Of a stretch of 64,000 bases of DNA, positions 294 through 63,725 are shown in pieces; position 1 is the stretch's first letter, and every line of letters begins with the position of its first letter. Source of the stretch: a virus; the IMG/VR virus record IMGVR_UViG_3300045988_146982, positions 1,038 to 65,037 of that record; one strand, written 5' to 3'. The translations under genes and the position numbers were made by a program. Below the pieces are notes generated by a model. It ran no database searches. It had not been told where the DNA came from and worked only from the letters and a program-made list of their open reading frames with translations.

Positions 294-444
294 GCTATGT
301 AAATAGAACTGTGTCAAACCTTTAGTTTATTATTTCTTAGTTTAATACTACTCTGAATTCATCTGATATTCAGATATTTATCCGAAAGTAAAATTTGAGA
401 TAATCAGACTTGTTAAGGATTGACACAGTTTAAATTACGATCTC
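294..444. repeat. Left copy of a 151-bp perfect inverted repeat (partner at 63575-63725)
   Basis: The reverse complement of 63575-63725 equals 294-444 at 151/151 positions (checked block by block). Confidence 0.95.
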
Positions 445-1052
445 GCCTTAGGTTTTCTCTTTTGGGATTCATCATATCCTAATTGCCAAAAGTACATATC
501 TACAATCCTCATTGGAGGATACTGCATGTTTCTATCAATCATCAATTGACACTCTTCTATATCTCTCACATGATTTTTTGCAAATTCATAGACAGAGCTA
601 ATGGTGGGTATAGACCCTTCTTTCAGTTTCCATCCATCTACAAAAAAACGGTCAAAAGCCGGAATACATCCCAATGTACCCAACAAGACCTTCGTTTGCA
701 GTGTTCTTGAAGCTTTTATAGCAATATTTTCATATCTATTTTTAACTTCATTCATAACCTCTTGTGCTTTATCTGCTTCAATTACGCAATCACGTCTTAA
801 GGCTAATGGCTTTATATATTCTACTACTGGAATATGAATTTTATAATCTTTTTGTAGTAACTCAGTGGACCCCCTGTACATTCCCCAGCTAGCAAGATAG
901 AAAGCCAAATGCAAAGCCAAATAGTCTATTGAATTATTAGGATTACCAAAGGCTTCATAACAATGTTCCCATGACAGGTAGCGATGATTCTTATTGCATT
1001 TCGCAATATATTCTTTAACAATGTTTTTCATAAATACTTCATTTTGCAGCAA
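435..1052 (-). CDS. Hypothetical protein (205 aa)
   Basis: Long ORF with no family I can name. Its stop and last three codons lie inside the left inverted repeat. Confidence 0.5.
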   Translation of the reverse strand: MLQNEVFMKNIVKEYIAKCNKNHRYLSWEHCYEAFGNPNNSIDYLALHLAFYLASWGMYRGSTELLQKDYKIHIPVVEYIKPLALRRDCVIEADKAQEVMNEVKNRYENIAIKASRTLQTKVLLGTLGCIPAFDRFFVDGWKLKEGSIPTISSVYEFAKNHVRDIEECQLMIDRNMQYPPMRIVDMYFWQLGYDESQKRKPKARS

Positions 1053-1112
1053 ACATATAAAAATGCCCCGACTTTCGCAAGCCGGAGCAGTCCAATTTAT
1101 AGATTTAAAGTC

Positions 1113-1661
1113 TTATGATGAAGCTTGCCTGTTGCGCCAATGTTTTCGTACCACCAACGTGACAACAAGCAAAACGGTTACACAAACACAGGCAAAACCT
1201 ATTTGTTTAAGCAGCGTGGATTCTTTTTTCTCCTTTACCCCTTCAGTCTTGGTTTCCTCATGTTTGGTGGAAGTGGTTTCCTTGTCAGCTTTCACCTCCG
1301 TACTGTCTTCGGTTGCAGTTTCCTTCTTTTTATTCTTGCTGAAATCACCTTCCACATGTCCGTCAGCCAGTAACGGAGGTTCCCCGGTCAGGCGGTCAGG
1401 TGGTTTTCTTGTATCATAGATACGGAAATCAATCACATAGCTGCCATTAGTGGTTATCAACTCTCTTAAAGAAGTTGTAGAACCATGTACGATGTTGACC
1501 GATTCACGTGTACTATCCTTCAGTACAATCTCTGTGTCAGATTTAACAGCCTTATGCGAGCTGCCACACGATAGCAGCAGGAACAGACAACACATAAAGG
1601 AAACCGGCAATATATGCCGGCTTACCAAATTCATAACCCTAACCAACATAAGAGATATCAT
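1113..1661 (-). CDS. Lipoprotein with a C-terminal transmembrane anchor; unimolecular-spanin candidate
   Basis: Lipobox LLLSC (likely start is M10 at 1634), a charged K/E/T-rich linker, and a C-terminal TM segment [18 protein letters not shown]. It lies immediately downstream of the endolysin. Confidence 0.5.
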
Positions 1662-2157
1662 TTATACGGTTCATCCACCCTCTCTTGAATTTGTTGTTCG
1701 CAGGACGCTTGCGGCATATATCCTCAATGAAGTCAAACCGTGCAATCTTAATCATGTCGAACAACTCACGCGGGTTCTTGGCATTTACCGAAGCAATGGT
1801 CTTGGGACCTACAATGCCATCCTCCGTAACACCAAGCAGGCGTTGAGGAATCTTAATGCCATGAACACCGGATGCCCACACCCAGTCCACAAGAATATTT
1901 GCTACAGACTGATTCTGTATCAAATCAGCCTTCCATCTGTCCCAGTACATGGTCTTCAAGATTTCCGTCCATTCCTCTTTCGTGAGATTTTTCAATCTTT
2001 CAACTGTAGGCTTGGAATATCCTTTCTTTCGGCAATATGCCTCATAGGTTCCGATAGTCACACCCATATTGGTAGCCCCTCCCAAATCGTCAGGGTCATT
2101 TACAAAACCGCCTTCCCACTTTAGGACAAACGGTGCAAGTTTTCTTACGTCAGCCAT
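1639..2157 (-). CDS. Endolysin, GH108-type lysozyme with a PG_binding_3-like C-terminal domain
   Basis: N-terminus [25 protein letters not shown] matches the GH108 EGG-x-V-x-D-x-x-D-x-GG-x-T signature. A DGIVGPKT peptidoglycan-binding motif follows. Confidence 0.8.
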
Positions 2158-2542
2158 TCTTCTTTTCCTCCTTATCTTTAATTAATGTAGCTCTGCGTGG
2201 TGGAATACGACGGCCACATTCGCTGTCAGGCCTGTCACAACGGTTGTGCTCGGCATCTTTCAATTGTAGTTCCAGCTCATGGCACTTATGAATCCATGTC
2301 AGCTTATCAGACTGTTCGTTACGAAGCTCAACGTATAACGCATCAATCTTGGCGTCACGCTGGGCGATACGTTCTTCCAGCCAATCAACCTGTTTACGCT
2401 CGTTCTCATCCTCCATTGAATCGGCGGACGCATCCTCCTTCCGCGCGTTCGTCTTGCGGTTTACCCAGAACGTGACACCCCAGCGGACAGCCTCCAATCC
2501 CCCGAAAGCCCCGATTATAGCCAACCAGTCATTTAATTCCAT
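2150..2542 (-). CDS. Type-II membrane protein with a coiled coil (holin or i-spanin-like lysis accessory)
   Basis: N-terminal TM segment [22 protein letters not shown] followed by a charged coiled coil. Overlaps the endolysin start by 8 nt. Confidence 0.4.
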
Positions 2543-2572
2543 TCCGTCTATTGTTTATCTGATTATAAATGT

Positions 2573-2667
2573 TATTTTTGCATGTGTTTTTCATAACCCA
2601 ATAGACCTGGCGAGGTCGTTGCATAAGTTTTTCCCTGCTGTCCGAAAAGGCATGCAGGGATTTTTTT
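2573..2667 (+). ncRNA. Candidate small RNA unit: an orphan + strand promoter and intrinsic terminator
   Basis: -7 box TATTTTTG at 2573-2580. Stem CCCTGC (2633-2638) / GCAGGG (2654-2659) is followed by T7 (2661-2667). Only a 4-codon ORF lies between, and the unit sits in a minus-strand intergenic gap. Confidence 0.3.
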
Positions 2668-2670
2668 ACA

Positions 2671-3183: not shown

Positions 3184-3195
3184 AACTTTTTATTT

Positions 3196-3846
3196 TTAAA
3201 GATTAAACACTAATTGTTCTGGATAACCCGCTGAATAGTCGAAGAACTTCACTTCCTCTGCTGTTTCCATTTGTTCGACCTGCGCCGCATGTTCGGCAGT
3301 TACATTATAGCATTGCAGGGCATACAGCTCCAACGCTGCAAGCATCTGCAATGCGGTATCTACCGGAATAGTGTACTTCACTCCACCAAACCAAAGGTTG
3401 GTTTCCGGCTTTCCGGCATCTTTTTCTATGCCAATTGAATTGACCAGTCCGACACGGGTTGCTTTGTCCAGCCAAATACGATTACCGGCGAGCATGAACG
3501 AATTGACGGTCTCCGACCGGTCATAAGCAGCGATCTTGTTTAACATGAACTCTTTGAATACAGACGTTTCATTACCGCCTGCAAACCCAAGAGCTTCAAA
3601 TATAGTTTCCAATTCTTGGGTGGTCATTTCCTCATTCAATCCATACCCGTTTATTCGTTTCACAAACTCATCGGCCGTCAGGTGTCCTGTCATTGTTGCC
3701 GTGTATGCTTCGTATCCGCCTTCAACCTCCCGGATACCAAAATTCACAGTGGTGTAGATTTGATCCACCACTTTGTCAACCACCACTACCGATGGCTTCT
3801 CTTCATACTTTTTCTTCTCCATGATTGCGTTAATTTGGTAATACAT
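3196..3846 (-). CDS. Hypothetical protein, tail-fibre-associated by position
   Basis: 216-aa ORF directly downstream of the DGR RT. An alternative start, MEKKKYEE, lies at 3822. Confidence 0.45.
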   Translation of the reverse strand: MYYQINAIMEKKKYEEKPSVVVVDKVVDQIYTTVNFGIREVEGGYEAYTATMTGHLTADEFVKRINGYGLNEEMTTQELETIFEALGFAGGNETSVFKEFMLNKIAAYDRSETVNSFMLAGNRIWLDKATRVGLVNSIGIEKDAGKPETNLWFGGVKYTIPVDTALQMLAALELYALQCYNVTAEHAAQVEQMETAEEVKFFDYSAGYPEQLVFNL

Positions 3847-5269
3847 AATTCAACTCTTTATACATTTTTCTATACCTCTTCCTGATACATACCTTTTCAA
3901 AATGACCTGATATGTAAAAGTATTTATAGAATCTGCTCCCGAAGAGCGATAATACCCATTTCCTGTGGCGGTAGGTCTTAAGCCCTTTGCAGAACCCAAG
4001 ATAGCTATTCAGGACCGATTCGATGCGGGCGCAATCATTGGCGGTCAGCTCGGTTGTTTCAATCATCCGGTTAAAGCCTGTGGCACGTTCCTTGAACCTT
4101 GCCAATGTGCGGTTGCTCAAATAACATCTTCCGGGCTTGATATACACGCCTACGAATAAAACCCCGTGCGACACAGGTTGCAGGTACCGCTTGTCCTTAT
4201 GCAGCTTCAACAGCAATTTCCCGCCAAGAAATGCTTCAAGTTCCGGTATCACCCCCTGCAATGCTTTCAAGTCGTCGCATACCAACAGGAAATCGTCCAC
4301 GAACCTCACATAATGGGAGTTCAACCGCCGTGTCTTCCATATTACATAACTGTCAAAGAAGGACATGAGAAAATTGGCAAACAACTGCGTGGTCAGATTG
4401 CCTATCGGACCGCCTTTGCCCTCCCCGTTGCGAAGCAGGGATTTGTTTTCGGGCAACTGCCTCCACAAGGTCGTATCACCGTTGAACACGCAATCCTTTT
4501 CCGGGCTGTGCAATACAACCGCCCGTATCACCCTTAAAAGGATTTCCTTGTACCCGCCATGGTATTTCCTTTTCGTGAAGCGCAGCAGCATGCCAAGCTG
4601 CAACACCCGGTCTATCGACATGAAGAACGAAACCAAATCGCCCTTGAACACCCATGCAGGTCTGCGGTAGCCGCAGGAAACAGCCTCCATGCCTTGCACA
4701 GCACTTAATACGGCTGTTCTGGTGCCGTAACCCTTACGGCAGTTATGTGACACGTTCCCCTGCGATTCGAACCGCTCTTCAAACAAAGGTTCAAGCCGCA
4801 GGCATATCCAATGGTGCACGATACGGTCACGGAAATTGGCAGCAAACACTTCCCTCAGTTTCGGGTATCTTACAAGAAAACAGGTGGATGTGGACGGTTT
4901 GTATGTGCCTGTCCACATCTCTACAGCCAAACAGACAATGTCTTCTTCGGCTATCTGCATATACTCGACTGCCTGGCAGGAACTCATCTTCCCGCGTAAG
5001 CAGTCCTTATAAGCATCGATAACCGTATCCAGGAAACATTTGAAATCCGTTCCGTATGCTGCCACCGCCCGCGCCCTATTACCGTTGTACTTGTTGTTGT
5101 TGCTAGTGTTGCCACTGGAGAAGTTCACATACCAACTGTTGTTGCGGCTGTTCTCGGTACTGGACCAATACCACGAGGCGGAGACTTCTTGCGTATTTGC
5201 ATCTTCGTTACTATGGCTTGCCACCATAGTAATACGCCCATTCAGAGGATTTCGCCGTACACTATTCAT
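3830..5269 (-). CDS. DGR reverse transcriptase (the ORF as drawn reads through the template repeat)
   Basis: Carries the DGR-RT signature IGNLTTQLFANF (compare Bordetella Brt IGSLTSQLFANV), the catalytic box RFVDDFLLVCDD, and an N-terminal DAYKDCLRGK motif. Adjacent to avd and TR. Confidence 0.9.
   Translation of the reverse strand: MNSVRRNPLNGRITMVASHSNEDANTQEVSASWYWSSTENSRNNSWYVNFSSGNTSNNNKYNGNRARAVAAYGTDFKCFLDTVIDAYKDCLRGKMSSCQAVEYMQIAEEDIVCLAVEMWTGTYKPSTSTCFLVRYPKLREVFAANFRDRIVHHWICLRLEPLFEERFESQGNVSHNCRKGYGTRTAVLSAVQGMEAVSCGYRRPAWVFKGDLVSFFMSIDRVLQLGMLLRFTKRKYHGGYKEILLRVIRAVVLHSPEKDCVFNGDTTLWRQLPENKSLLRNGEGKGGPIGNLTTQLFANFLMSFFDSYVIWKTRRLNSHYVRFVDDFLLVCDDLKALQGVIPELEAFLGGKLLLKLHKDKRYLQPVSHGVLFVGVYIKPGRCYLSNRTLARFKERATGFNRMIETTELTANDCARIESVLNSYLGFCKGLKTYRHRKWVLSLFGSRFYKYFYISGHFEKVCIRKRYRKMYKELNYVLPN
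5056..5183 (-). repeat. DGR template repeat (TR)
   Basis: 128 bp matching VR at 116/128 positions. All 12 differences are at T on the + strand, which is A on the coding strand. Confidence 0.9.
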
Positions 5270-5730
5270 ACCTTCTCAGTATTAAAACCCTGACGGCTTG
5301 TGAAATCGCGCCATGCTGTCAACTGCGCAATCAATTTATCAGATTCGCTGCGGAGTTTGTTGCACCTGTCTTTCGACAAGACACCGACACGCTCCAAAAT
5401 CACAAAATAATTTCGGATAACAAACAGCAAAGACATTGCATTGCTGATGTACCAGCTCCGTTCTTCCCCTCTCGATTCGTTGGCAAGGGCAACCGATTTA
5501 CCGACTTCCGACATATCGGAAATCATCAAATCGGTATACCGGCTCAGTTTTCGAGGGCAAGCCATCATGATTTGCGCTATCGAAAACATCAGGTTGCTTG
5601 CCGCACGAAAGGCAGGAAGCTGGGCGGTCCCCCGTTTCTGTTTCTCTTTCGCGGCGTTGCTTCGGGCAATCTCTTCACCCGTAAGACAAACGCATTTTTG
5701 TTCCTTGTTTTCTGCTGTTTCCTGTTTCAT
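5266..5730 (-). CDS. avd: DGR accessory variability determinant (Avd-like helical protein)
   Basis: 154-aa basic helical ORF between the target gene and TR/RT, the canonical Avd position. Its stop overlaps the RT ORF start (ATGA). Confidence 0.75.
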   Translation of the reverse strand: MKQETAENKEQKCVCLTGEEIARSNAAKEKQKRGTAQLPAFRAASNLMFSIAQIMMACPRKLSRYTDLMISDMSEVGKSVALANESRGEERSWYISNAMSLLFVIRNYFVILERVGVLSKDRCNKLRSESDKLIAQLTAWRDFTSRQGFNTEKV

Positions 5731-5747
5731 ATTATAATCTGCTTCAA

Positions 5748-5771
5748 GGCACGCTCCAAAAGGAGCGCGCC
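5748..5771 (-). promoter_or_regulatory. GC-rich hairpin downstream of VR (DGR target-recognition-type stem-loop)
   Basis: 10-bp stem (5748-5757 with 5762-5771, one mismatch) and a 4-nt loop. It lies about 23 nt 3' of the VR end on the coding strand. Confidence 0.6.
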
Positions 5772-5777
5772 GAAAGG

Positions 5778-8700
5778 TTAAAGTTTAAAAGTGAATGCTG
5801 CCACCGCCCGCGCCCTATTACCGTAGCACTTGCCGTTGCCGCTAGTGTTGCCACTGGAGAAGCCCACATACCAACTGTTGCCGCGGCTGCCCTCGGTACT
5901 GGACCAATACCACGAGGCGGAGTGCAAGGCAAAAGGATTCGCACCGACATTGATATCCCTTACCCGTTTCAGCATGTTTGCGAATAACGGCATCCGCGCT
6001 TCGCTTGACGGGTGTTCATCTGCATAGTCCGCTGTCGGGGCCGTGTTTATCTTGAAGCCACGGCTGCAATTGTGGAAATTGTAGATACGTGCCAATTCAC
6101 CATTTGCCGGAAGATACCAATTGCCGCTGCGGTACTGCTCATGCACCGCTTCGGCTTTCGGCTCGTACAACCGGCACATATATGCTGCCGGATAATAGAA
6201 CTGCCAGTACTTTTTTGCACCGGAATTGGAAGCAGCCAACTCTTTCATCGCCTTGTAAAGCTCTTCCATGGTTTCCGGCAATGGGACGTCCAGATAATTC
6301 AGCAGGATATGGTTGCAGTGCTCAATGATGATGTCCGTTTTCTCCTTCCCGTCAAAGTCATTGACAGAACCTGATGTGAGTACGGCATATCCGTCATCCG
6401 TATCATCATCCAAGTAGTTATCTTCGTTGATGTAGTTGGAAGATGGTTTACCGTTATTTGGGTCGGTCGTTTGAGACAGCCCGGTGCTGTTTATATTCGG
6501 CATTGCGGTATCTGTCGCTGAAGCAATGCCGGCAGCATTCTGGATGGCATCCTCTATTTCCTGTGGAAATCCGTTGGTGGCGGAAGCCTCCGGGTACAAT
6601 CCCCATGGCCAACTTACAACATTCGTATTTTCATCTACCATTATGATATCCTCGGCGGCATCTATACGCAGTTCGTACTCGGTATCGCTCTTCTTTGTTC
6701 GCATAAATACCACGCCGGCGAGTGTCTTGCTAGGGTCATAGGCATCGTCAAATGTGCCGTCCGCGTAGGCGAAGTCCCCGATTTCGGGTATACGGTTGAA
6801 GAACCCGACCTGCTTGGTCTGTTTCATTACCCTGTTGTCCATCGTGGTTACTTCCACCGTCACCGTGAATCTTTCCTTCAATGCCGCATCGCTCAATTTC
6901 TTTACATGAAGCACGCCGTTTACAGGATCGGTAAACCCGGCATAAAGCGAGGCTCCATCTTCGATAGACCAGTTGACCGCAGCATGCCCGTCCACGATTT
7001 TCACGTTGTTGGCACTGGTAGGCAATACGCTGATATGGAATCCGGTGTATTCCCCAAGCGTGAAAATGTAGTTGTTGCCCTGTATGGATATGGAGTTGAT
7101 GGCACGGACGGGATAACTGACATACAGCGGATTATCCGTGCTGTCAATATCCCCGTAGCGTCCTACCAGCTTCATTTTCTCGTCAAACGTGATATACCGG
7201 TCGCCAGATGCGTTCATCAGGGCTATGGACCCTGTCAGGACAGATTGTTTGTCACACAGGAACACAAGCATATCCGCCGTGACGGATTCCCATTCAACGG
7301 ACTTGAACGTCACGCTGCTTAACTCTTCGGTCGCCCCGGTGTACAACTGCGCGGCGAATGCCCGGCTGTTGAACGCCCCGGCACCTTTCTGGTCGACGTA
7401 GACAGTTTGCAGGTTGCCTACGCCTTCGATTCCAGCCGTCTTCAATCCGGGCAGATCATCCAAATGCAGCGCGGTCAACTTGGCGGGCAGCTCCAGGTTC
7501 TCCAGGCTTCCAGTCTTGGGAAGCGTCACGGTGGAAAGGGCGGTTCCCGACACACCAAGGCTTTCGGCACGTGTCAGCTTCGACAGGTCCAGTATACCGG
7601 CTAACGCTTCCACGCCGTTCAGGTTCAGGCGTTTCAGGTTTGGCGTGTTTATCTTAAAGCTGGAAGCGTTGAACTCGACAACCTTTATGCCTTCTTCACG
7701 TCCGGCGGAAAACTCCGTGAGCCGTTTTCCCGACAGGGCAAATTCCCCGGTCAACGGCTTGTCACCCCAATTGCCGATGCTGCTGTAGCAGTCCGGTGCC
7801 AGGAGCGCGCAGGGTGTGTCGTTATCCGTTATAAATGATATGGTATAGTTTTCCCCGGCTTTGACACGCTGCGGAAGTCCGTACGCTTTCCCGTCATTGT
7901 CAGCCCCAAAGCCCAATGACTGCCCGATAGCCACCGCCGGATAAATCCACATGAACGGACGCAGGTTAAAGGTATAAGTCGGCTGTTTGCCATCTTTTGT
8001 GTAGCGGCTGCGGAACGATATGGACTGCGAGCTTGCCACGCTGAAATCGCCATACGAACAGAACGAGGAAAGATACACGGTACGCATCTTCAGGTACTGC
8101 ATCTCACCTTGCAACTGGTCTCCGAGTGATTGCGAGATAGCCGATACGGAGGGTGGATTATACAACCCTTCGTTTGCTTTTTGCTCTGCGTATTCGTAGA
8201 GTAGCCGTGCCGTCTCGTTATAGGCAACAGCCGGAAAATACTTTTGGATGCGGAAATAGAACTTCTCGAAACAGCCCATAGGGGAACCGCCTATTTTCGC
8301 CATTGCCGAAAATATCGCCTTCATGGTGGAGCGCAGCTCGGCAGGGAAAGCGAGTTCCATGAGGTTGTAGAACGTGTTCACTTCACCGTTCCAATAGTTC
8401 TTTCCGTTTGCGTTCAGGTCGTGTTCTTCCACATAATAGGGCTTGTCCTTGCGCCCGAGATTGTCGGTCAGGAAAATGGTATCCATGTCATCCTGGGCAA
8501 AACATATCAGGTGTGTCTTCGGGTCAAGGTATTGGTATGTGTTCTTTGCCCGGTTGTCACTGGCGGCAATCAGCTTCATCACCATCATTGTAAATCTGGC
8601 ATCCGACAGGTTGTAATACTGTCCGATACCGGATTTGAACATTGCCACACGTGCGTTAATAAACATCGCGTTCACCTCCTCCCATATCTGGTTCTGCACG

Positions 8701-11700
8701 GCTTCCGATTCATCGAACCCGGCAAGGTAATCGTTGAGCTGTGTGCGTAAGTTCAATTTCTCATAACTGCCAACACCTGATTTGTTCACCCCGGCATCCA
8801 CCCATGTGGAAGTAAGCCAGTCGTAACGGTACAGGTCGTACTGCTGCGCATCGCCTCCAGCCTTCGTCACCCAATACATCTTGTCTTTTTCAAGGTCTGC
8901 ACCGGCAGCCTGTAGTTCGGCAAGTGTCCCCACAAACGCTTTCAGGCGGTTGGAACATTGATATATGAAGTTATGTGCCGTTTGGAAATAACCAACCTGC
9001 TTTTCATTACCCAAATCAAAATCCCAAGACACAACCCCGTTATACTTCCATCCTTCCAATTCTCCCTCGTCGTCAATGGATGGCTCAACGTCTTCGTTCC
9101 ACGGTACCTGGTGCAGCGTCAGTACGGCACCGTTGTCCGACCCTTCGATCATTAGGTAGTCGGGAAATACTTCTTTGTCATATCCGAATGTCGGCTTGTC
9201 GCCTTTTCCGGGTCCGAACGTTACCAAGCCGTAGAATACAGGTTCAGCCGATTCGTTTTCGCGGACAAACATCATGAACGGAAGTTGCTTGACGCATACA
9301 CGGCATTTTTCATAACCACCCGTTTCCGTGATGGAATTACCACCAACCACTTCTTTCCACAATTCGTGGTACAGGTCGCACGACCCTGCCTTGTGACTCT
9401 GCTGGGAGGAAGCCCAGTTCAGTTTCGCCACCAGCTTGGTGGCAGGCGGCACATCATCCGTCAATTGGTAAGCCGCTCCACGGTCGGTTCCGTTTCCGTC
9501 AATCCAATTATAATCGCCAAAGCCGTACTGGTGGTTCCACAGGAAATATTTCTTTGATGACGAACCCTGTCCTTTCACGCTCATTCCCTTAATCGTACCG
9601 GAGTGGGACGGGTCGCCTACAATATTAATCGTCAGGTCTCCTTTCTTCTTCGCCTGGTCAAGGATATAAGGGAGTGAGCCGGTCCAGAGCATCGTGTTGT
9701 ACTTCTGCGAAGCGCGCTCGTAGTTGATCAGGTTATTATACAATACGTCATTCTTGTCGCGGAACGCAATCTTTTCGCTTACCTCCGTCATACTTGCCAT
9801 ATAATCCTGCCGTATGTCAGTGGCTGAAAGGGCTTTCTTATAGATGCGGATACCGTAGATATCCACATCAGAGGTTTCCGAGCCGATGCGGATACCGTGC
9901 GAGGTGAGCACCCCATTCACGCGCTGGATGAATTTGTCTGTTTCGGTATAGACGAACTCACGGTTGATGATTCCGTTGATGAACAGACGCACGTAACTGA
10001 TACCATGCCCACCGAGGTTATAAATGATATTTACAGCCAGAAGGGTGCGGGTGTCCTCCTGGAACATCACATCCTGGTCGGTGGGCGTACGGTGCCCAGT
10101 GGTCAGGAAGTACGCCTCTTGCGGACGGATTTCCAAGCCCAAGGGCAGTCCGTCGCTTGCGTAGGTGGAGCACATGCGGATAATCGGTTCTGCAAGGTCG
10201 GTCGCGTTGCGGGAAGCGTAGTCAATCTCAATGGTCAGTGAACTCTCCTGGGTCTGTCCGGTGGTTTCGGAATAGCTCTCGTAGTCAATATCCAGCGAGC
10301 ATCCGGCAAGGACGCGCAGGCATTTGGCTCCGGCACTGTCAGTCTGCCATCCGTCCGTCAATAGTTCGAAGCCTTTCCATACGGACGGGACCTCCTCACC
10401 CGTTTCCTGGTTGACAATCCGCATCGGATTCTCCTCGGTGTTGGTGCGCTGTTTGGGGTTCAGCACGAAATCAGCCCCCTTGGTGGGAGAAAAGTTTTCG
10501 CTGTTGTCAATGGTGAAGAGAAGCTGCTGCCGCAGTTCCGTATCGCCGGAATAAAAGAGCATGCGCCCGTTCAGCGTGTCACCTGCGCCTTCTTCCGTTT
10601 CGACTTCGACCATCGCGCTCAGTTCATAGCGTGTGCGGTTGGCTGCCGCCGGAATGTCCTGCGTCAAATAGGCTTCTTGCAGCTTGCCATCCATCAGGCG
10701 AAATTGCACGGGCGTTGTTTCGGCTGATGGATTATAAACCGCCCACTCGAAAAACTTCACCGTATTCCAGTTGGTCAGGTCACGCTGTATGCCGTTCAAC
10801 GCCATCAATATGCCCGTTTCCCCTTCTTCGGCTACCATGATTTGCGAAACCAAATCATCGGTCTGCACTGACGAACCGCTGCTCAGGTAAGCTGTGACGG
10901 TATAGACGCCATGCTTCTTGGGGCTGTCAATCTCCAGAATATAGGGTGTTTCCGTATAGACGTTCGTACCGAGGGCACGGGTAAAGGTCCGGTCGTAGTC
11001 CTTACCGGTAACACGTACCGTAAGGTCTTTGGCAATGTTGCCGGTGACATAGTAAGACAATGGGATACGCTCGCCGTCAAAAGGATTTTCCCATGTGGCG
11101 GCAAAGTCAAGCGCAAGGCTTGTCACCGTGATGGAGTAACTGACGTATGTGGTTGACAGTTCCGTGGTCTCACCGCGGCAGATGATACGGACAGATTGCT
11201 GCCCGAGCGTCAGGTAATCGCCGATAGGGACTTCCACCCAGTCGGATGAATCAGCCGGGTAGGATTCAATCTTCACCGTCCCTTTGGTGCTCCAGTTGCT
11301 TGCGCCTTCCACTTTGGTCTGTATCGTCAGTACGCCCATTTCGCCAGTATCGGTGGTCTGCTGCGTGGCAGGGTTGAATACCTGCGAGGTAAAACGGAGC
11401 TTGACACTCAATTTTCTTGATGTCGTGATGATGGTACGCTCCGAACCGTTCACAAGGTTCAGGATATAGCTGGTTGCCGAACTCGATCCGTCGCCACTTG
11501 GCAAGGCAATATCAAACAGGACGTTCGTTGCGAATGCTTCCGGGTTGCTGTTCCATTCATTATAACGTTCCTCATCGGCAAAGCCGCGAAGGTGGTAGTT
11601 CCCGTCTGTTTCCTTGTCCGTTGTCCGGGACAGATACCCGGCTTTGCTCTTGAACTGCTTTTTGATGAACTCTTCCACACGGGAACCTTTATACATTTCT

Positions 11701-11762
11701 GAAGACGTGCTCCACGGCACTTCTATGCTTTCAATCTCTTTATCCAGTTTTATCTTTGCCAT
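5778..11762 (-). CDS. Giant tail-fibre / receptor-binding protein (1994 aa), the DGR target, with a C-terminal C-type-lectin-fold (DUF1566-like) variable region
   Basis: The C-terminus ...SWYWSSTEGSRGNSWYVGFSSGNTSGNGKCYGNRARAVAAF contains VR. Internal regions look LamG/ConA-like (LFINGIINREF...IRIYKKALS), leucine-rich-repeat-like and Big-like. Confidence 0.85.
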   Translation of the reverse strand: MAKIKLDKEIESIEVPWSTSSEMYKGSRVEEFIKKQFKSKAGYLSRTTDKETDGNYHLRGFADEERYNEWNSNPEAFATNVLFDIALPSGDGSSSATSYILNLVNGSERTIITTSRKLSVKLRFTSQVFNPATQQTTDTGEMGVLTIQTKVEGASNWSTKGTVKIESYPADSSDWVEVPIGDYLTLGQQSVRIICRGETTELSTTYVSYSITVTSLALDFAATWENPFDGERIPLSYYVTGNIAKDLTVRVTGKDYDRTFTRALGTNVYTETPYILEIDSPKKHGVYTVTAYLSSGSSVQTDDLVSQIMVAEEGETGILMALNGIQRDLTNWNTVKFFEWAVYNPSAETTPVQFRLMDGKLQEAYLTQDIPAAANRTRYELSAMVEVETEEGAGDTLNGRMLFYSGDTELRQQLLFTIDNSENFSPTKGADFVLNPKQRTNTEENPMRIVNQETGEEVPSVWKGFELLTDGWQTDSAGAKCLRVLAGCSLDIDYESYSETTGQTQESSLTIEIDYASRNATDLAEPIIRMCSTYASDGLPLGLEIRPQEAYFLTTGHRTPTDQDVMFQEDTRTLLAVNIIYNLGGHGISYVRLFINGIINREFVYTETDKFIQRVNGVLTSHGIRIGSETSDVDIYGIRIYKKALSATDIRQDYMASMTEVSEKIAFRDKNDVLYNNLINYERASQKYNTMLWTGSLPYILDQAKKKGDLTINIVGDPSHSGTIKGMSVKGQGSSSKKYFLWNHQYGFGDYNWIDGNGTDRGAAYQLTDDVPPATKLVAKLNWASSQQSHKAGSCDLYHELWKEVVGGNSITETGGYEKCRVCVKQLPFMMFVRENESAEPVFYGLVTFGPGKGDKPTFGYDKEVFPDYLMIEGSDNGAVLTLHQVPWNEDVEPSIDDEGELEGWKYNGVVSWDFDLGNEKQVGYFQTAHNFIYQCSNRLKAFVGTLAELQAAGADLEKDKMYWVTKAGGDAQQYDLYRYDWLTSTWVDAGVNKSGVGSYEKLNLRTQLNDYLAGFDESEAVQNQIWEEVNAMFINARVAMFKSGIGQYYNLSDARFTMMVMKLIAASDNRAKNTYQYLDPKTHLICFAQDDMDTIFLTDNLGRKDKPYYVEEHDLNANGKNYWNGEVNTFYNLMELAFPAELRSTMKAIFSAMAKIGGSPMGCFEKFYFRIQKYFPAVAYNETARLLYEYAEQKANEGLYNPPSVSAISQSLGDQLQGEMQYLKMRTVYLSSFCSYGDFSVASSQSISFRSRYTKDGKQPTYTFNLRPFMWIYPAVAIGQSLGFGADNDGKAYGLPQRVKAGENYTISFITDNDTPCALLAPDCYSSIGNWGDKPLTGEFALSGKRLTEFSAGREEGIKVVEFNASSFKINTPNLKRLNLNGVEALAGILDLSKLTRAESLGVSGTALSTVTLPKTGSLENLELPAKLTALHLDDLPGLKTAGIEGVGNLQTVYVDQKGAGAFNSRAFAAQLYTGATEELSSVTFKSVEWESVTADMLVFLCDKQSVLTGSIALMNASGDRYITFDEKMKLVGRYGDIDSTDNPLYVSYPVRAINSISIQGNNYIFTLGEYTGFHISVLPTSANNVKIVDGHAAVNWSIEDGASLYAGFTDPVNGVLHVKKLSDAALKERFTVTVEVTTMDNRVMKQTKQVGFFNRIPEIGDFAYADGTFDDAYDPSKTLAGVVFMRTKKSDTEYELRIDAAEDIIMVDENTNVVSWPWGLYPEASATNGFPQEIEDAIQNAAGIASATDTAMPNINSTGLSQTTDPNNGKPSSNYINEDNYLDDDTDDGYAVLTSGSVNDFDGKEKTDIIIEHCNHILLNYLDVPLPETMEELYKAMKELAASNSGAKKYWQFYYPAAYMCRLYEPKAEAVHEQYRSGNWYLPANGELARIYNFHNCSRGFKINTAPTADYADEHPSSEARMPLFANMLKRVRDINVGANPFALHSASWYWSSTEGSRGNSWYVGFSSGNTSGNGKCYGNRARAVAAFTFKL
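5795..5922 (-). repeat. DGR variable repeat (VR)
   Basis: Counterpart of TR. It lies in the last ~45 codons of the 1994-aa ORF. Confidence 0.9.
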
Positions 11763-11775
11763 AATTCACATTGTT

Positions 11776-11955
11776 TTATTTGTTACCGTCCCAATACTCA
11801 TCCCCGTCCCAAGGTTTGTCCCCGTCCCAATATCCGCTGCCGAAGCAGCTTCTTACAGCCATCCAAACAAGCCGTGCCCCTTTGTAGATGGCCGATACCG
11901 CCCGCCGGCCGTAGTAGATGACTAGCACCTCTTTTTCTTTCACCACGATTCCCAT
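11776..11955 (-). CDS. Small ORF (59 aa) with three W-D-G repeats
   Basis: ATG at 11955, 3 nt after the upstream stop. The C-terminus reads YWDGDKPWDGDEYWDGNK. It is below the ORF-track length cutoff. Confidence 0.3.
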   Translation of the reverse strand: MGIVVKEKEVLVIYYGRRAVSAIYKGARLVWMAVRSCFGSGYWDGDKPWDGDEYWDGNK

Positions 11956-11958
11956 ACG

Positions 11959-12309
11959 CTATTCCTCCAATACGTAATACATGGTGTCCGGGTCTATGCG
12001 GTCACCAAGGTTTTCAAACTCGTTTTCTGTCAGCAGGACCGGGACGAAGCCGAACAGCTCCTTTCCCAGCTCGGATGCCGCCTCGGTCTTTTCCTCCGGA
12101 GTCATATCGCCCCATGCGGCAGCGCCTTTTTCAGCCATTATCATCCATGTGGCATCGTCTGTGCCCGGCGTTACGCCTTTGGTCTTGTCCTTGAGACACA
12201 CGTAGGAGCTGCCCAAATGGAACACAAGGTCAAGCCGGTTGTATTCCTCTGGCTCTGCATATCGCCCGCGCGGGATGAAAGTCACCCTTCCCAATATTGT
12301 TTTTGCCAT
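11959..12309 (-). CDS. Hypothetical tail-fibre-module protein
   Basis: 116-aa ORF tightly packed in the same-strand operon. Confidence 0.45.
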   Translation of the reverse strand: MAKTILGRVTFIPRGRYAEPEEYNRLDLVFHLGSSYVCLKDKTKGVTPGTDDATWMIMAEKGAAAWGDMTPEEKTEAASELGKELFGFVPVLLTENEFENLGDRIDPDTMYYVLEE

Positions 12310-12317
12310 ATCGCCTT

Positions 12318-13211
12318 TTATCCGTTAATTGTTAAACATAGTTCACCGTCATCCAACGTGAAAACAGGACCGGTATATTTGTCAGGGGTGGTACAGACGA
12401 GTTCCCCCTTGGCTATGTCGATGTCGAAGGCGGCGAACATTATATCTCCGCGGGCGAAAGTGCCGGTGTCGCGGTATTCGCCGGTTTCTTCATCCCACAC
12501 CCACCAGTTGCCGTTTCCCCCGATCTTCGCCGGGTTGTCGGCGTAGGCTTGTGCGCGATCCGCTTGATTTTGCGCAGCCGCAGCCGCTTCTTCCGCTTTC
12601 TTTGTGGATTCTTTAAATCCTTTCTCGCGGGCAGTTTCCGCTTCGGCACGTTTGTTCTCAAACAATATGCGGTCGTTCTCCTGTCGTTTACGGATGTTTT
12701 CATTACCGATTCGTGCGTTTTCATTGCTGATGCGTGTTTGTTCATTGGACGACACCGTGCGGTCGGTATCCTCCAGCTTCGCGATCATCTCCGCAGCCGG
12801 GCGTTGCAATTCGGCAATCTCTTCGGGAGTAAAATCCTTCAGGTGGGGAATAAGCATGCGCACCTCATCTTCGGTCAGGTCTTCGAAACGGAGCTTGATG
12901 TCGGCTATGTCAACCAAAAGCCGCCATGTGGTGTCGGGGTCGGGAATATACTTGTACTCAATGCCGGTCTCTGTTTTGCGGAATTCCGGCGTCTTGCCCT
13001 CTGCGACTACTCCGGTGCCGATGTCTCCCACCCACCATACGCCATCCCGGATGGAAGGTTTCAGGCTGTCAGACACCGCCGCCTTGAACAGCGCAACCGA
13101 TATACGCCCGTTTACCCCGGAAGACAGGACCAGCAGTATGTTATCATTCCCGCCGACACCGGACACAGGGGTAAAATCCTTTATGTCTATATCATTCATC
13201 CCTTGCGACAT
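12318..13211 (-). CDS. Hypothetical tail-fibre-module protein with a central coiled coil
   Basis: 297-aa ORF with a repetitive N/E/R-rich helical middle segment. Confidence 0.5.
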   Translation of the reverse strand: MSQGMNDIDIKDFTPVSGVGGNDNILLVLSSGVNGRISVALFKAAVSDSLKPSIRDGVWWVGDIGTGVVAEGKTPEFRKTETGIEYKYIPDPDTTWRLLVDIADIKLRFEDLTEDEVRMLIPHLKDFTPEEIAELQRPAAEMIAKLEDTDRTVSSNEQTRISNENARIGNENIRKRQENDRILFENKRAEAETAREKGFKESTKKAEEAAAAAQNQADRAQAYADNPAKIGGNGNWWVWDEETGEYRDTGTFARGDIMFAAFDIDIAKGELVCTTPDKYTGPVFTLDDGELCLTING

Positions 13212-13537
13212 GGCGGTATCTGTTTATGTTTTCCGATATAATCCTTCATGGAATCGGCAAATACTCCGGGGAACAGGTCTATGCTGCTTAATATGGTGTC
13301 CACTTCGGTATCGTCAAGCTCGGTTTCCCCGGTGGAGCGAAATATCTTCTCGGCAAGCACGTGCGCCGATATTCCGGGAATGTTCCTGTAGATGGAATCG
13401 GCATACTCTTCCGCTATGTCCCGCTCCACAACCATGTCCTTGCGTATGTTTGCATACATCGGGAATTTTCTAAAATTTATTTTCATAATCTCTTTCTTAA
13501 ATTGATAAATACATTTCATTCCAATAATATCCGTCAT
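13196..13537 (-). CDS. Hypothetical protein
   Basis: 113-aa ORF with short overlaps to both neighbours. Confidence 0.4.
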   Translation of the reverse strand: MTDIIGMKCIYQFKKEIMKINFRKFPMYANIRKDMVVERDIAEEYADSIYRNIPGISAHVLAEKIFRSTGETELDDTEVDTILSSIDLFPGVFADSMKDYIGKHKQIPPCRKG

Positions 13538-16500
13538 ACATAAAGCCCCGGAAATGGTTGTCCTTGATCGATGTCGAACCGACCGGATTTCTGTTGTTGG
13601 CTTCCCGTATGGAACCGCTCATGGTTATATTCCCGGTATTGGCAGGCTTGATGAATACAATCTTCCCCTTCCACATGGTTGCGGAAGAAGGCAGGCTGAC
13701 AGTAATCGAAGAAGTATTCTTACATACAATCAGATCATCGCTGCTTTTGACAGTATACGAGGATGAAACCTCAATCGCATTAAGTGCCAATCCGTTTATC
13801 CGGACGAACTCTCCGCTTCGTGCAACAATTTCCGCGTTGCCTCTTGACTTCAACGCGTACCCGAAGCCGCCGGCGTTACATAGCAGCTCCAAGGCAATGG
13901 ACAAATTACTGGAACCATAAGTGCTGAAACTTGCCGCCGTCCTGCCATCGGCACGGGCAGCCAAGAATGCGCTGCTTGAAGGGTCGTTCAGCCGGAGGAA
14001 GTTATATCCGCTGATCTCGAATTTAATGGAAGCATTGTTCCCGGATACCGACAAGGAATTATTCGAAATCGTAAACCCGCCGATAGTACCTTTACTCACA
14101 TCAATTGACCCGTTGATTCCATCCAGCGTAAGCGTGCCGCTCTGCGACTGCATCTTCTGGCTCTTGAACATGAACCCGGCAATGTTGGCTCCGTCAATCA
14201 GGGCGGTATCCATCGCCACGAAGCTGAACTTGTTGGACTGTTCCCAATAAGAGGTGTTGGTGGGGGTGGCAGAACCGGAATATCCGTACGGCTTGACAAT
14301 ATAGGCATTGCCGTTATATATCACGATATCGCGGTATTCGCTGTTGTAAACATAAGTCTCGGACGATTTGTATGTGCCGCGGTAGCGCGGCATGGAACCC
14401 GAAGGTCCGCGGTCGCCGGCAGGACCTTGCGGACCCTGTGGTCCGCGGTCCCCATCTTCTCCGTCCGATACTATCTGCGCATAAGCCACACACTCAATGT
14501 TGCTGAACGGTTTTGCCACAATCTTATAATACTTGTACGAAGAGGACACGGAGACCGTGAATGTGGTCGAATAGGAAGAACCGGTGGCATACTGCGACCA
14601 TGATTCGTTATCGTTACTCCGGTATATGTACCATTGGGCGGACTCTGCCGCCTGGGTATTATTACTGTTCTTGTAACAGGTGCAGACAAAAGATGAAGGG
14701 TCCAGTGAGCCTGTTATCTTCTGACCGATGGTCATTTGGGCAGGAGATATGCTATAATAGCAGGCGTCTTCACCGGGTTTGCCATCTTCGCCGTCATGCC
14801 CAGGCTGCCCGGGCTTCCCGTCCTCGCCGTTTGTCAACACGGGAATCGTTTCACGGTCTACAGGTTGTCCGTTGCAATAAAGGGAAAATGTAATGCTTGT
14901 GCCGGCAGACGTTACGGAGAGCGGACTTCCGATGGCGTAGGCAACCTCTTCCCCGTCATCAATCTTACGCATCATGGCATAACCATCCGGCAGGACGGTT
15001 ACACGTACAGGCGCATTCTTCCCGTCCGTCTTGCGGAGCACGCACGTAATGGAAGACACGGAACACGAACCGTCCGAATTCTTTTTGATGGAGCTTTCAG
15101 AAGGGAGCAGGTCGTAAATGACAGCAGGGTCCCCGTCCGTCAGCTTCGTGATGCCGAACTGCACCGGCTTGGAATATTGTTCACCGGCAAACGTGGCGTA
15201 TGCCCGTACCGGGATGGTGATAACCCTGCTGCCGGGCACTGCCGGAATAGCGGTGACGGTAATCACGCCTGTTTCCACATCTTTGGATACACTGACACCC
15301 TCAGACGCTTCCACTTCTATCCTGTCCAATCCAAGCCGGCGCGTGCCATACCACATGCTGACAACAGTCGTGCAGGGCAGTCCGTTCAGCACGTTGCCAT
15401 AGGTGTCGCAATGTACGGCGCACATTTCGTTTGACAGGTCCGCCGATATGATGTTCCATCCGTTTTGGTTGACATTGATGGTATAGGTTTTCAGGAATGA
15501 TGCGTTTCCTTCGCAGTTCACTGTGATGCCGATGCTCATGCCGCCAAGGTCGGTCAGCCCATCCACAATGACAACCCCGTTCTCCACGTGCGCAGTGCAG
15601 CCGACAGGCTCGATTGACACCATGAACGCGCCGGCTTTCAAGGTTTCCGAGTAAACCAGTTCCTTTTCGCCCTTGAAAGCCTGCACGCGGGTGGAAAGGC
15701 GGAAGCCGGTCGCCACCACATTCTCTTCTCCGCCTATTACGTTCCTGCCGCCTGCGGTCACATTCTGCACGGTCTTTGCCCCGTTGATGATATTGCCCTC
15801 TTCGTCCACCGTCACAACACCCTCGTAGCTGGACAGGTTGACGCTGTATGCAGTGAGCTGGTCCACCTGGTCGGGAGTGAACTGGATATGCACGCCGGTC
15901 ATGTAACCGTTCTTCTGGAACGTCCCGTGACCGTGCATCTCCATGCCGCCGATGGTAGTGCCGTCCAGCAGCCCGGACTGGTACATGATATGTTTGTCGG
16001 GGTCAATCTGCCAGGTATCCACTCCCTCCAGGATACGCTTGTAGTAGCGGTTCTCGTAGGTGATGGACTGACGCTCCTTGTCGGTAAAATTGCCGTAGGC
16101 GAAGAAGTTCATCCCGGGCATGGGGTGTACGCCGGTGCCCACTTGCAGGTTGTATTCGAAGCTCATCAGCCCGGCTTTGCTTTCAACAATCCGGGTGGGA
16201 GTAAAATATGAAGTGGCAAAGCCGGAGTATCCCATGAAGCCGTTCTTGTCGAACAGGGTCTGCTCTTCGTTGCTGCCTTCCAAATTGTGGAAGACGCCAC
16301 GACAGATGTCGTTGACGTGCAGCGTTCCCCACTGGTCGTCCAGCAGGTCAAGCGTGGCAATGCGTTTTTCCCTGTCTACGGTCTTAATGGTACCGTAAGC
16401 AAATGTGTTTGCTTTGTCACCGGCTATCACATCAATGCAGTTGAATGTGATTTTGGGAACAATCAGCTCTTCACGGGCAAGAATCCTGTCTATTTCAAGG

Positions 16501-26468: not shown

Positions 26469-26761
26469 CTATACTCTTCTTTTTCAGTGTCCCAATACAC
26501 TTGCAGATTATCATTCAGTTTTCTGCCTGTACCTTTCACCTCACCGATAAGATTCTCTTTGAGAGTGCCAAAGGCTTGACGTAACGTGCCGTCAGTCTTT
26601 TTGAAGTAGAACTCTACTATCTTCACTTTCATCTCACCTTTCAACTTCAAATTAGCCCATGCGCATTTTAACGCTTCACTCATTGAATAACCGTTCTTGC
26701 GAACAAACTGCCATGCTAAACTCATGACCTCTTTCATCTGACTTCTAAATTTTGTGCTCAT
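26432..26761 (-). CDS. Conserved phage protein, paralogue of 59824-60150
   Basis: Shares EVMSLAWQFV..NGY.MSEA.K.AWANLKLKGEMK.KIV.FYFKK.DG...GTL...RCFKK.NL with the other copy. It is the first gene of a leftward operon. Confidence 0.6.
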   Translation of the reverse strand: MSTKFRSQMKEVMSLAWQFVRKNGYSMSEALKCAWANLKLKGEMKVKIVEFYFKKTDGTLRQAFGTLKENLIGEVKGTGRKLNDNLQVYWDTEKEEYRCFKKCNLIKIA

Positions 26762-42389: not shown

Positions 42390-42421
42390 AATCGTGTCAA
42401 ATTTAAATTAATACTCAATAG

Positions 42422-42493
42422 TTGCGGGGGGCTGAATCGAACAACCGACCTTCACCAAGTCAAAGTGAAAAGCTACCACTGCTACACCCCGCG
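42422..42493 (-). tRNA. Phage tRNA with an initiator-type acceptor stem (C1xA72) but anticodon GAC
   Basis: Hand-folded 72-nt cloverleaf: CGCGGGG TG TAGC AGTGGTA GCTT T TCACT TTGACTT GGTGA AGGTC GGTTG TTCGATT CAGCC CCCCGCA A. Confidence 0.7.
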
Positions 42494-53898: not shown

Positions 53899-53904
53899 AG
53901 TTTT

Positions 53905-61865: not shown

Positions 61866-61881
61866 TTACAATAATAATACT

Positions 61882-63351
61882 ATGAAATTCAATCAATACC
61901 TTTGGAATCTATACAAGAACTCCCCTTCCGGGAAAGTTGTCATATCCAGCTTTTCAGACAGAAAGGAATGGATAGACGAGGAGCAGCTTTTAGAACGCTA
62001 TAACCCAAGTATCAAAGACAATTTCAACAAAGAAATTATATGCGAAATACTGGAAGATTTTTGGTGCTATAAAGTTTCCGATTTTGAAGGTATAGAATAT
62101 CCGTCACTTGATGAAGCTAGTAGTATATATGAAGGTATTATCTCTACCGGACTACGGATAGAGAATGAAGAAGTATTAAAGATAGGAGATTTCAACTTGA
62201 TGCTTGAATACATCCCATTCCTCTCAATGGAGTTAAACTACCTATTTGGTGAATATTTCTTTCCATATTTGTACATTGACAGATTCTATGAACTCAAAAA
62301 GTTAGCTGACTATTTTGAAATAGAATTGCCGCCAATTCCCAAGAAGCCCGATTACAAAAATAGGTGCATGTATTATTGGGAACTATGCAAAGTGTTCTAC
62401 TATTTCAGAATGGAAAACAACTTGACACCCGATGAATTGAGCGCATTTATGTATGATTATGTGCCAAACCTTCTGAATACGGAAGAAAAAGGAGTTATTC
62501 CGAAACCATCACAAGCATGGTTTATCGGTGGATTAATAAGAGGATATGGTGAACATTGGACTACCGGATTTTGGCAAACCAATCAAGAAACTAAGAAAGG
62601 AGATATTCTTGTTCATTACGAGACATCACCTATAAGCGCAATTACTTGTTTGTGGATAGCACAAACCGATGGTGTTATCGACCCGTTCTTCCACTATTAC
62701 AGCAACACTTATATAAGTAACAGAATAGCCATTCCTCACATCACATTAAAAGAGCTTCGGGAAGATGAACACTTCTCCAGCCACCCGCTCATAAGAAAGA
62801 ACTTTCAAGGAGTGAACGGATGGTCAATGAGTAGCGAGGATTATTCAGAACTCCTGCGAATGATAAAGGCAAAAGGATTTGATATAGACACCCTGCCGAA
62901 GCTATATACTCCTACACTACCCAAGAATGTAAGTATAGAAAAAGAAAGAGATGTGGAACTACAACTACTGGAACCATTGCTTAACTCTATGGGATGGTAT
63001 GAGAACAAAGACTTCATTCGTCAATTACCAATACATGCAGGACGTGGACACCGGATATTTCCCGACTATGCTCTGCATTACGATAATAAGCCAGACGAAG
63101 AAAAAGCAAAGGTTTTAATTGAGGCAAAACTCTACATGAAGAATAACCAAGAAATAGAAGAAGCATTTTTGCAGGCTCGCTCATACGCTCAGCTTCTTGA
63201 ATCCTATATCATCATCCTATGTGATAAAGTGGGGTTAATTGTATATAAGAAAAAGGGAAGTTTTGACCGAGGCAGGTACAAAAAATACTATTGGGAAGAG
63301 CTTGAAAATACTGATATTTTCAACGAATTAAAGAACAAACTAAATATTTAA
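61882..63351 (+). CDS. Fusion protein: unknown N-terminal domain + PUA-like (EVE/ASCH-type) domain + C-terminal PD-(D/E)xK nuclease (HSDR_N-like)
   Basis: The C-terminus ERDVELQLLEPLLNSMGW...FPDYALHY...KVLIEAK fits the type I R-subunit N-terminal nuclease pattern. The middle region WFIGG...KKGDILVHYETSPISAI looks PUA-like. Confidence 0.55.
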   Translation: MKFNQYLWNLYKNSPSGKVVISSFSDRKEWIDEEQLLERYNPSIKDNFNKEIICEILEDFWCYKVSDFEGIEYPSLDEASSIYEGIISTGLRIENEEVLKIGDFNLMLEYIPFLSMELNYLFGEYFFPYLYIDRFYELKKLADYFEIELPPIPKKPDYKNRCMYYWELCKVFYYFRMENNLTPDELSAFMYDYVPNLLNTEEKGVIPKPSQAWFIGGLIRGYGEHWTTGFWQTNQETKKGDILVHYETSPISAITCLWIAQTDGVIDPFFHYYSNTYISNRIAIPHITLKELREDEHFSSHPLIRKNFQGVNGWSMSSEDYSELLRMIKAKGFDIDTLPKLYTPTLPKNVSIEKERDVELQLLEPLLNSMGWYENKDFIRQLPIHAGRGHRIFPDYALHYDNKPDEEKAKVLIEAKLYMKNNQEIEEAFLQARSYAQLLESYIIILCDKVGLIVYKKKGSFDRGRYKKYYWEELENTDIFNELKNKLNI

Positions 63352-63355
63352 GATT

Positions 63356-63553
63356 ATGATTGACTTTCTAACCATCATACTCCTAATATTCGGAGTATTA
63401 CAAATCATCCTCTTCTTCAAAGTATGGGGAATGACAAACGACATCAAAGATATAAGGAACAAGTATCTCAAAGACGAAGATGAGAAACAAAGAAAAAACA
63501 CAGAGTATGACGTTATAACCAAAATAAGTGGCGGTTCTAAACCAACAATATAA
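63356..63553 (+). CDS. Small membrane protein (65 aa)
   Basis: N-terminal TM segment FLTIILLIFGVLQIILFFKVW. Confidence 0.45.
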   Translation: MIDFLTIILLIFGVLQIILFFKVWGMTNDIKDIRNKYLKDEDEKQRKNTEYDVITKISGGSKPTI

Positions 63554-63574
63554 ATCATTTAATTAACATTTCAA

Positions 63575-63725
63575 GAGATCGTAATTTAAACTGTGTCAAT
63601 CCTTAACAAGTCTGATTATCTCAAATTTTACTTTCGGATAAATATCTGAATATCAGATGAATTCAGAGTAGTATTAAACTAAGAAATAATAAACTAAAGG
63701 TTTGACACAGTTCTATTTACATAGC
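63575..63725. repeat. Right copy of the 151-bp perfect inverted repeat
   Basis: Reverse complement of 294-444, 151/151 identical. Confidence 0.95.

Follow-up and report, generated by a model that had tools for sequence, protein, structure and literature searches.

Two copies of a Bacteroidales miniature transposable element probably account for a perfect inverted repeat around the integrase–attP module of a Phocaeicola phage

Invertible segments are well known in Bacteroides, where invertons are driven by tyrosine recombinases. A second source of repeated, non-coding DNA is the miniature inverted-repeat transposable element (MITE), of which the Correia elements of Neisseria and the ERIC and MITEEc elements of enterobacteria are the classic bacterial examples. 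MITEs common to prokaryotic hosts and phages (cMITEs and vMITEs) have been surveyed, and Bacteroides and Phocaeicola were named there as sharing MITE clusters (Nucleic Acids Res 2024, PMC11602168). Here we analyse a 64,000-nt stretch of IMG/VR virus record IMGVR_UViG_3300045988_146982 (positions 1,038 to 65,037; hereafter the window), which belongs to a Phocaeicola temperate phage and carries a 151-bp perfect inverted repeat with one arm on either side of the integrase (int) gene and the phage attachment site (attP). With a probability of roughly 0.8, this repeat consists of two copies of a Bacteroidales MITE that inserted separately on the two sides of the int–attP module. On this reading, the pair is what transposition ordinarily leaves behind rather than a device by which the phage inverts its DNA. 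We know of no individual description of this MITE family, which is characterised by a length of 152–153 bp, 25-nt ends and an 8-bp duplication of its target.

A repeat search, checked against the raw sequence, confirmed that the two arms (294–444 and 63575–63725) are exact reverse complements at 151 of 151 positions, with 63,130 nt between them. An earlier note made from the letters alone had claimed this repeat, and the spacings that it gave also hold: the left arm begins 33 nt downstream of the integrase stop codon (259–261) and the right arm ends about 125 nt before a tRNA-like stretch. The window holds no other long inverted repeat, the runner-up pairs being 30–31 nt long and matching at 74–80%. 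The biological unit is slightly larger than the arm, at 152 nt (293–444 and 63575–63726), with an outermost base that differs between the two copies (T/G). This unit is an imperfect palindrome with a predicted hairpin of −50.7 kcal/mol (z = −6.6 against shuffles). Whether one copy might be an assembly artefact had been raised in the same note; both copies, each identical at 151 of 151 positions, were found again in more than 20 independent assemblies, which rules this out.

To define the family, we used a gapped pattern taken from the inner inverted repeat (AACTGTGTCAA ... TTGACACAGTT), which matched 7 IMG/VR contigs and 14 species-representative genomes of Bacteroides, Phocaeicola, Parabacteroides and Dysgonomonas. 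Four of the genome matches (L010, L015, L018 and L019, the sole Dysgonomonas match among them) have only the inner repeat in common with the rest and were handled as outliers. On alignment the core members measure 152–154 bp, with L004 and L041 truncated, and every core member has two distinct conserved 25-nt ends, with the consensus sequences GGGTACGTAAATAGAACTGTGTCAA (end A) and GAGACCGTAATTCAAACTGTGTCAA (end B), at 0–4 mismatches to consensus. The inner 11 nt of these ends are invariant, the interior is conserved too, and the two ends together form imperfect terminal inverted repeats (TIRs). A profile search with the family found exactly two copies in the window, at 144–145 bits, against about 19 bits in the reverse direction; since the profile scores one orientation only, the element has a polarity. 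It has no coding capacity and, at 152–153 bp, is far too short to encode a transposase.

Copies of the element were found at more than 20 distinct sites in chromosomes, plasmids and at least three phage types of several genera (Bacteroides, Phocaeicola and Parabacteroides). Its neighbours vary from site to site and include fatty-acid synthesis, SusC-like, cobalamin, methyltransferase, mobilisation and phage lysis genes. The nearest copies, 97.9% identical, lie in intergenic DNA of Phocaeicola dorei and Phocaeicola vulgatus plasmids, and an exact 40-mer of the phage/plasmid variant recurs in 18 metagenome contigs, at a minimum of 7 further sites. Searching PLSDB with the consensus returned four full copies and one solo end, the latter a truncated remnant beside partition genes on a Phocaeicola massiliensis plasmid. 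The 151-mer itself had no match among the INPHARED phages.

Target-site duplications (TSDs) were scored over 8 bp on each side of a copy, in the frame set by the 25-nt ends. Perfect (8/8) flanking repeats were seen at 10 or more distinct sites, including the left copy of the window (GCCTTAGG), L012 (CGCATTTC), L017 (TCATTTCT), L021 (TTTTTTTG), a plasmid site (TAATTATG), L047 (ATTAAACT), two copies in L050 (ATTATATC and GAGTCAGA) and L052 (ACAAAGTT); L006 and L016 have 7/8. The plasmid site is also known in its empty form, as a single TAATTATA or TAATTATT that stands uninterrupted in plasmids of Bacteroides finegoldii and Parabacteroides distasonis (NZ_OY725919 and NZ_CP120354).

The left phage site can likewise be compared with its state before insertion. 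A 198-aa protein encoded convergently to the integrase now ends in ...PKARS*, with RS* supplied by MITE end B, and removal of the MITE together with one GCCTTAGG gives a predicted end of ...PKAAQ* that runs into a terminator hairpin. The protein of a ~90% identical allele, on a chromosomal island of Phocaeicola sartorii type, ends in ...TKAAK*. Moreover, the sequence ...CTAAGGCAGCCAAATAAGCTGCCTT... is uninterrupted in L062–L067, in the form predicted for the time before insertion and with the same gene end and hairpin. Taken together, the small non-coding unit, the conserved TIRs, the 8-bp TSDs, the dispersed copies and the empty sites identify the element as a MITE.

Movement of the MITE would most likely depend on a DDE-type transposase that the Bacteroidales host provides in trans, with a staggered 8-bp cut whose repair would leave the 8-bp TSD. 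The MITE probably entered the phage twice and in opposite orientations, one insertion falling in the last codons and terminator of the 198-aa gene and the other in the 21-nt-plus spacer between a 65-aa gene and attP. Both phage copies have four common substitutions that are absent from the nearest plasmid and chromosomal copies, and they are therefore probably each other's closest relatives, one having given rise to the other. Its decayed flanks would make the right copy the older and its perfect TSD would make the left copy the younger; in the simplest history, the MITE may first have inserted near attP and then, recently, have been copied from there into the end of the 198-aa gene. The perfect identity of the arms had been read as a sign of ongoing recombination or gene conversion. 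Such a process is not needed, since phage DNA around the copies itself differs by 0–1% among samples and the left TSD is intact, as in a recent insertion. Two independent insertions have a 50% chance of facing opposite ways, and the inverted geometry around int–attP is incidental.

Several observations weigh against the origin by two separate MITE insertions. The flanks of the right copy (CATTTCAA and ATTTCCAA) agree at only 5/8 positions, or at 7/8 with a 1-nt offset, and the uninterrupted string predicted for that site had 0 matches in IMG/VR. Querying with the MITE-less right flank gave a sole match, to the 65-aa gene of Bacteroides phage BS-TP2, and no empty site. At the left site, the empty form comes from the ~90% identical gene allele in a different genetic context, and the exact predicted string had 0 matches in IMG/VR and 0 in the metagenome collection. 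The number of copies is low for a classic MITE burst, with one exact-TIR match only per matching contig. No autonomous insertion sequence (IS) with the same termini was detected in PLSDB or in the fetched loci, where fuzzy terminal-repeat scans gave MITE-sized pairs only. A degenerate terminal-repeat scan of IMG/VR also returned more MITE copies and no autonomous parent, and neither the IS1595 copy of L069 nor the ISL3 copy present in L032 and L035 carries the MITE ends.

A further point on the same side comes from an unrelated phage, in which a member of the MITE family adjoins the integrase stop (L003 1423–1575, L005 1480–1632 and L007 1203–1355). This phage is 54–59 kb long, has an integrase that is 26% identical and is integrated at tRNA-Gly; MITE end A lies beside the 3' end of int in the same orientation as here, and no second MITE copy was detected in these three contigs. 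The recurrence of the MITE beside int hints at site preference or selection.

How the arms relate to the rest of the genome depends on the form that the phage takes. Its PHROGs matches mark it as a tailed temperate phage (major head protein, portal, large terminase, DNA methyltransferase, CI/S24-type repressor and reverse transcriptase), and it also encodes a GH108 endolysin. It is a very common phage, and about 860–950 indexed assembly blocks contain its 198-aa and 489-aa proteins in exact copy. The sources give the name P. massiliensis and, for the 198-aa protein, also 'Siphoviridae sp. ctkcl3', and close alleles of its proteins carry the names P. vulgatus and P. sartorii. In integrated copies, one end runs from host DNA through the complete tRNA-Arg(TCT) and int to the repeat (L022–L026 and L045), and the other from the repeat through the tRNA fragment (attR) into the host (L032–L035). 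The arms therefore bracket the phage interior in the prophage and int–attP in the circle (L027/L036 and L028/L037), both as the earlier note had proposed.

To read the window as a prophage that ends in host DNA would be mistaken. The DNA past this fragment is the P' arm of attP, which runs into the integrase gene in L036 and L037 and is also present at attL of L045, and the tRNA fragment is attP itself. Furthermore, scaffold_179 (64,980 bp) is 100% identical to both window ends and places the end and the start 982 nt apart. Because the DNA beyond the tRNA fragment continues into int and scaffold_179 joins both ends, the window is the circular (excised) form of a phage of roughly 64,982 bp, opened inside int. 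Once the ends are joined, only 1,550 bp, with attP and int, separate the two arms. The repressor is then followed by the 489-aa and 65-aa genes, the first repeat, attP, int and the second repeat, and these by the convergent 198-aa gene, the lysis genes and the tail genes, with everything from the S24 repressor to int on one strand. An inversion had been suggested on the grounds that it would bring int back beside the immunity genes. This argument fails because the circle was read as a line; int already adjoins the repressor operon. The coordinates of all these features are collected in Table 1.

Table 1. Positions in the window of the two MITE copies, their flanks and the surrounding phage features
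Feature	Position	Strand	Remarks
Tyrosine integrase, 3' end	1..261	+	Last 86 codons and stop; full gene 387–467 aa in L001 and L022; Phage_int_SAM_5 and Phage_integrase domains
Terminator hairpin AAGGCAGC-TTATTGG-GCTGCCTT	268..290		MITE split hairpin from T-tract; P. sartorii-type relative has hairpin without MITE
Left TSD GCCTTAGG, first copy	285..292		8/8 in exact frame; 3' half of terminator stem; empty site known
Left MITE copy	293..444	+	152 bp; end A TGCTATGTAAATAGAACTGTGTCAA to end B (reverse complement of GAGATCGTAATTTAAACTGTGTCAA); arm 294–444; nhmmer 143.6 bits, E = 1.6e-42
198-aa gene	435..1031	-	Last two codons and stop from MITE end B
Left TSD GCCTTAGG, second copy	445..452		8/8 in exact frame; empty site known
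Immunity operon toward right MITE, attP and int	61206..63553	+	S24/CI-like repressor 61206–61865; 489-aa gene 61882–63351; 65-aa gene 63356–63553
Right-copy flank CATTTCAA	63567..63574		Imperfect counterpart of 63727–63734; 5/8 in frame, 7/8 with 1-nt offset
Right MITE copy	63575..63726	-	152 bp, A to B on minus strand; arm 63575–63725; nhmmer 145.3 bits
Right-copy flank ATTTCCAA	63727..63734		Paired with 63567–63574
attP core	63842..63886	+	Equals 3' 45 nt of tRNA-Arg(TCT); complete tRNA at attL of integrated copies
attP P' arm	63887..64000	+	Runs into integrase gene in circular genome

Given this geometry, the arms might instead belong to a recurrent inversion system, in which exchange between them, by homologous recombination or by a recombinase, flips the 1.55-kb int–attP segment (equivalently the 63-kb body) and yields two isoforms differing in integrase regulation or prophage orientation. 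We regard this as unlikely. A stretch of 151 bp of perfect homology is enough for a RecA-dependent event, and a regulatory effect is conceivable, since int lies downstream of the repressor operon in the parental form and would lie downstream of the late operon once flipped. We took a census of orientation at junctions with phage DNA on both flanks, among all fetched contigs (n = 28): 16 were parental left, 11 parental right, one was inverted and none was the reciprocal, and all 47 of the longest contigs read for 198-aa/489-aa matches were parental as well. The inverted junction that the earlier note had predicted thus appears once, in L045 (OGPF01003111.1, 6,143 bp), where host, tRNA-Arg, int and MITE are followed by the 65-aa, 489-aa and repressor side in reverse complement, with 99.9–100% identity to the window, exactly as expected from inversion; the other 27 junctions speak against it. 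L045 comes from a short-read metagenome, its join falls on a 151-bp repeat that is as long as or longer than typical reads, and it could be an assembly chimera, with another odd join, that of L054, at the same repeat edge. The left copy also keeps both halves of its TSD, and so the common genome has undergone no net inversion since the left insertion. An invertible segment would show both orientations at appreciable frequency and locus-specific recombinase sites; here one orientation prevails in the census and the repeat is a generic MITE, dispersed through the Bacteroidales with its own TSDs, including at sites that lack a nearby recombinase. A phage-specific inversion device, as first envisaged, is not what these copies represent. 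A programmed inversion switch is not supported, although an occasional RecA-type inversion is plausible.

Two other explanations accept the MITE copies and give them a different role, and neither fares better. They might form a composite transposon, with int–attP as a portable integration cassette that the transposase of the MITE would move as a whole via the outward-facing B ends. The geometry fits this idea, as B ends face outward and A ends face int–attP, and integration modules are indeed swapped among relatives that carry the repressor, 489-aa and 65-aa genes without this int module (L039 and L068–L077). However, a composite unit should have a single TSD around the whole, and the outer 8 bp (CATTTCAA against GCCTTAGG) are unrelated, each copy having its own flanking repeat. 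Homology to the relatives also stops at the 65-aa and integrase stop codons rather than at the MITE ends, the left MITE is inside the neighbouring gene module, and a MITE–attP–int–MITE cassette was seen in no other genome, all of which makes this reading extremely improbable. It is also improbable, if somewhat less so, that the MITE is kept for a function of its own, with its long hairpin terminating transcription in both directions or insulating convergent units from each other, or as a structured RNA, and with its pairing under selection. In favour of such a role are the strong predicted hairpin, the position of both phage copies and of the L003/L005/L007 copy at gene ends beside an integrase module, and an interior motif (TTTATCCGAAAGTAAAAT) conserved across genera. 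Against it, compensatory change was found in only 2 of 32 predicted pairs, the conserved pairs being essentially the terminal repeats and a 7-bp central stem, and most copies are at unrelated chromosomal or plasmid sites. Insertion between convergent genes is also what neutral survival of a transposon would produce. A structured RNA in particular was rejected, with no Rfam family at the gathering threshold and almost no covariation beyond the terminal repeats in RNAalifold, as was an attP arm or integrase-binding element, because the MITE with its TSDs occurs at sites without any integrase.

With two MITE insertions as the preferred explanation, the only likely consequence of the pair is a 151-bp stretch of perfect homology that could be used in rare RecA-type inversions or in exchange with MITE copies elsewhere. 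A few odd contigs bear on the latter. In L054 (OKWD01000118.1, 9966–10118), the MITE is a hybrid, its A end being of plasmid type and its B end of phage type. It connects 2.5 kb of P. dorei-plasmid-like DNA with the 65-aa/repressor module of a phage relative, at 96–98% identity, and this is either MITE-mediated phage–plasmid recombination or an assembly chimera. A near-identical MITE copy in L051 (1724–1875) and L048 has no target duplication (4/8) and may be a product of recombination between MITE copies. Should L045 be a true isoform and L054 a true hybrid, the MITE pair would provide both a reversible int–attP orientation and portable homology with Phocaeicola plasmids; we consider this doubtful. 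If it were so, inversion would expose the integrase gene to read-through from the late operon in place of the repressor operon, and MITEs would drive module shuffling among gut mobile elements.

Modules are exchanged in this phage group in any case. L039 and L068–L077 represent very common P. vulgatus prophage relatives with the same repressor, 489-aa and 65-aa genes, and they diverge from the window (63553–63575) exactly past the 65-aa stop, without the int–attP module and without either MITE. As they diverge exactly at this point, integration modules are swapped at gene boundaries.

Our analysis traces a conspicuous perfect inverted repeat on the scale of the genome, in a human-gut Phocaeicola phage that is very common, to two transposon insertions and no new switch. 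It also defines a MITE family, with 25-nt ends, an 8-bp TSD and two documented empty sites, that connects phages with plasmids and chromosomes and might be used as a marker for host assignment, and it provides a case in which a MITE has rewritten the last codons of a phage gene and split its terminator. On the practical side, the 151-bp perfect inverted repeat breaks short-read assemblies of the phage and may cause mis-joins, and caution is needed when 'inversions' or 'phage–plasmid hybrids' are scored from short-read assemblies at this repeat.

The remainder of the genome holds further features of note. Inside the repressor operon, the 489-aa gene has a weak match to HSDR_N (type I restriction R, N-terminal), a member of its 90% cluster in Bacteroides clarus is named 'type I restriction endonuclease subunit R', and the gene may serve the prophage in defence or exclusion. 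A DUF2693-FD RNA (Rfam RF02926; 59494–59542, minus strand; 75.2 bits against a gathering score of 44.5) lies immediately upstream of the divergent early/immunity region, and the phage also encodes a tRNA-Val(GAC) (42421–42493, minus strand). A complete diversity-generating retroelement (DGR) occupies 3830–5922, with the reverse transcriptase at 3830–5269 on the minus strand (PHROG 1423 at 6.7e-64, and Pfam RVT_1), the template repeat at 5056–5183 and the variable repeat at 5795–5922, the latter lying at the 3' end of a 1994-aa gene (5778–11762, minus strand). Over 128 nt the two repeats differ at 12 positions, all of them A in the template copy. The G+C content of the tail-fibre/DGR region (4000–18000) is 48–54%, compared with 32–46% elsewhere in the genome, which suggests a module of different origin. 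Two distant phage regions also share a direct repeat of 185 nt at 71% identity (26547–26731 and 59942–60126).

Set beside described systems, the integration module is of the lambda type found at tRNA 3' ends, with a tyrosine integrase, an attP that carries 45 nt of the 3' end of the tRNA gene and a tRNA rebuilt at attL. It differs in that attP is located between the repressor operon and int, which in the prophage leaves int beside the lysis/tail end and puts the repressor at the opposite one. Among IS families, ISL3, IS1595, IS6, IS66 and IS256 produce 8-bp duplications and were considered as possible parents. They resemble the MITE in TSD length and in having terminal repeats of similar length that start with GG or GA, but none was found with the MITE termini bounding a transposase, and the ISL3 and IS1595 copies near related prophages do not have them. 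The Gin-inverted G segment of phage Mu, the Cin system of P1, Salmonella Hin and the Bacteroides invertons also have inverted repeats around a segment beside a recombinase gene, which here lies within the segment. In those systems recombination takes place at short, dedicated sites and populations commonly contain both orientations, whereas here the repeats are transposon copies with their own TSDs and one orientation dominates. The closest likeness is to the cMITEs and vMITEs of hosts and phages (PMC11602168), with which this family has in common a small non-coding unit, TIRs, a TSD of fixed length, a mostly intergenic location and near-identical copies in host replicons and temperate phages. 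It departs from them in the few copies found per genome and in a phage pair that happens to bracket int–attP in inverted orientation.

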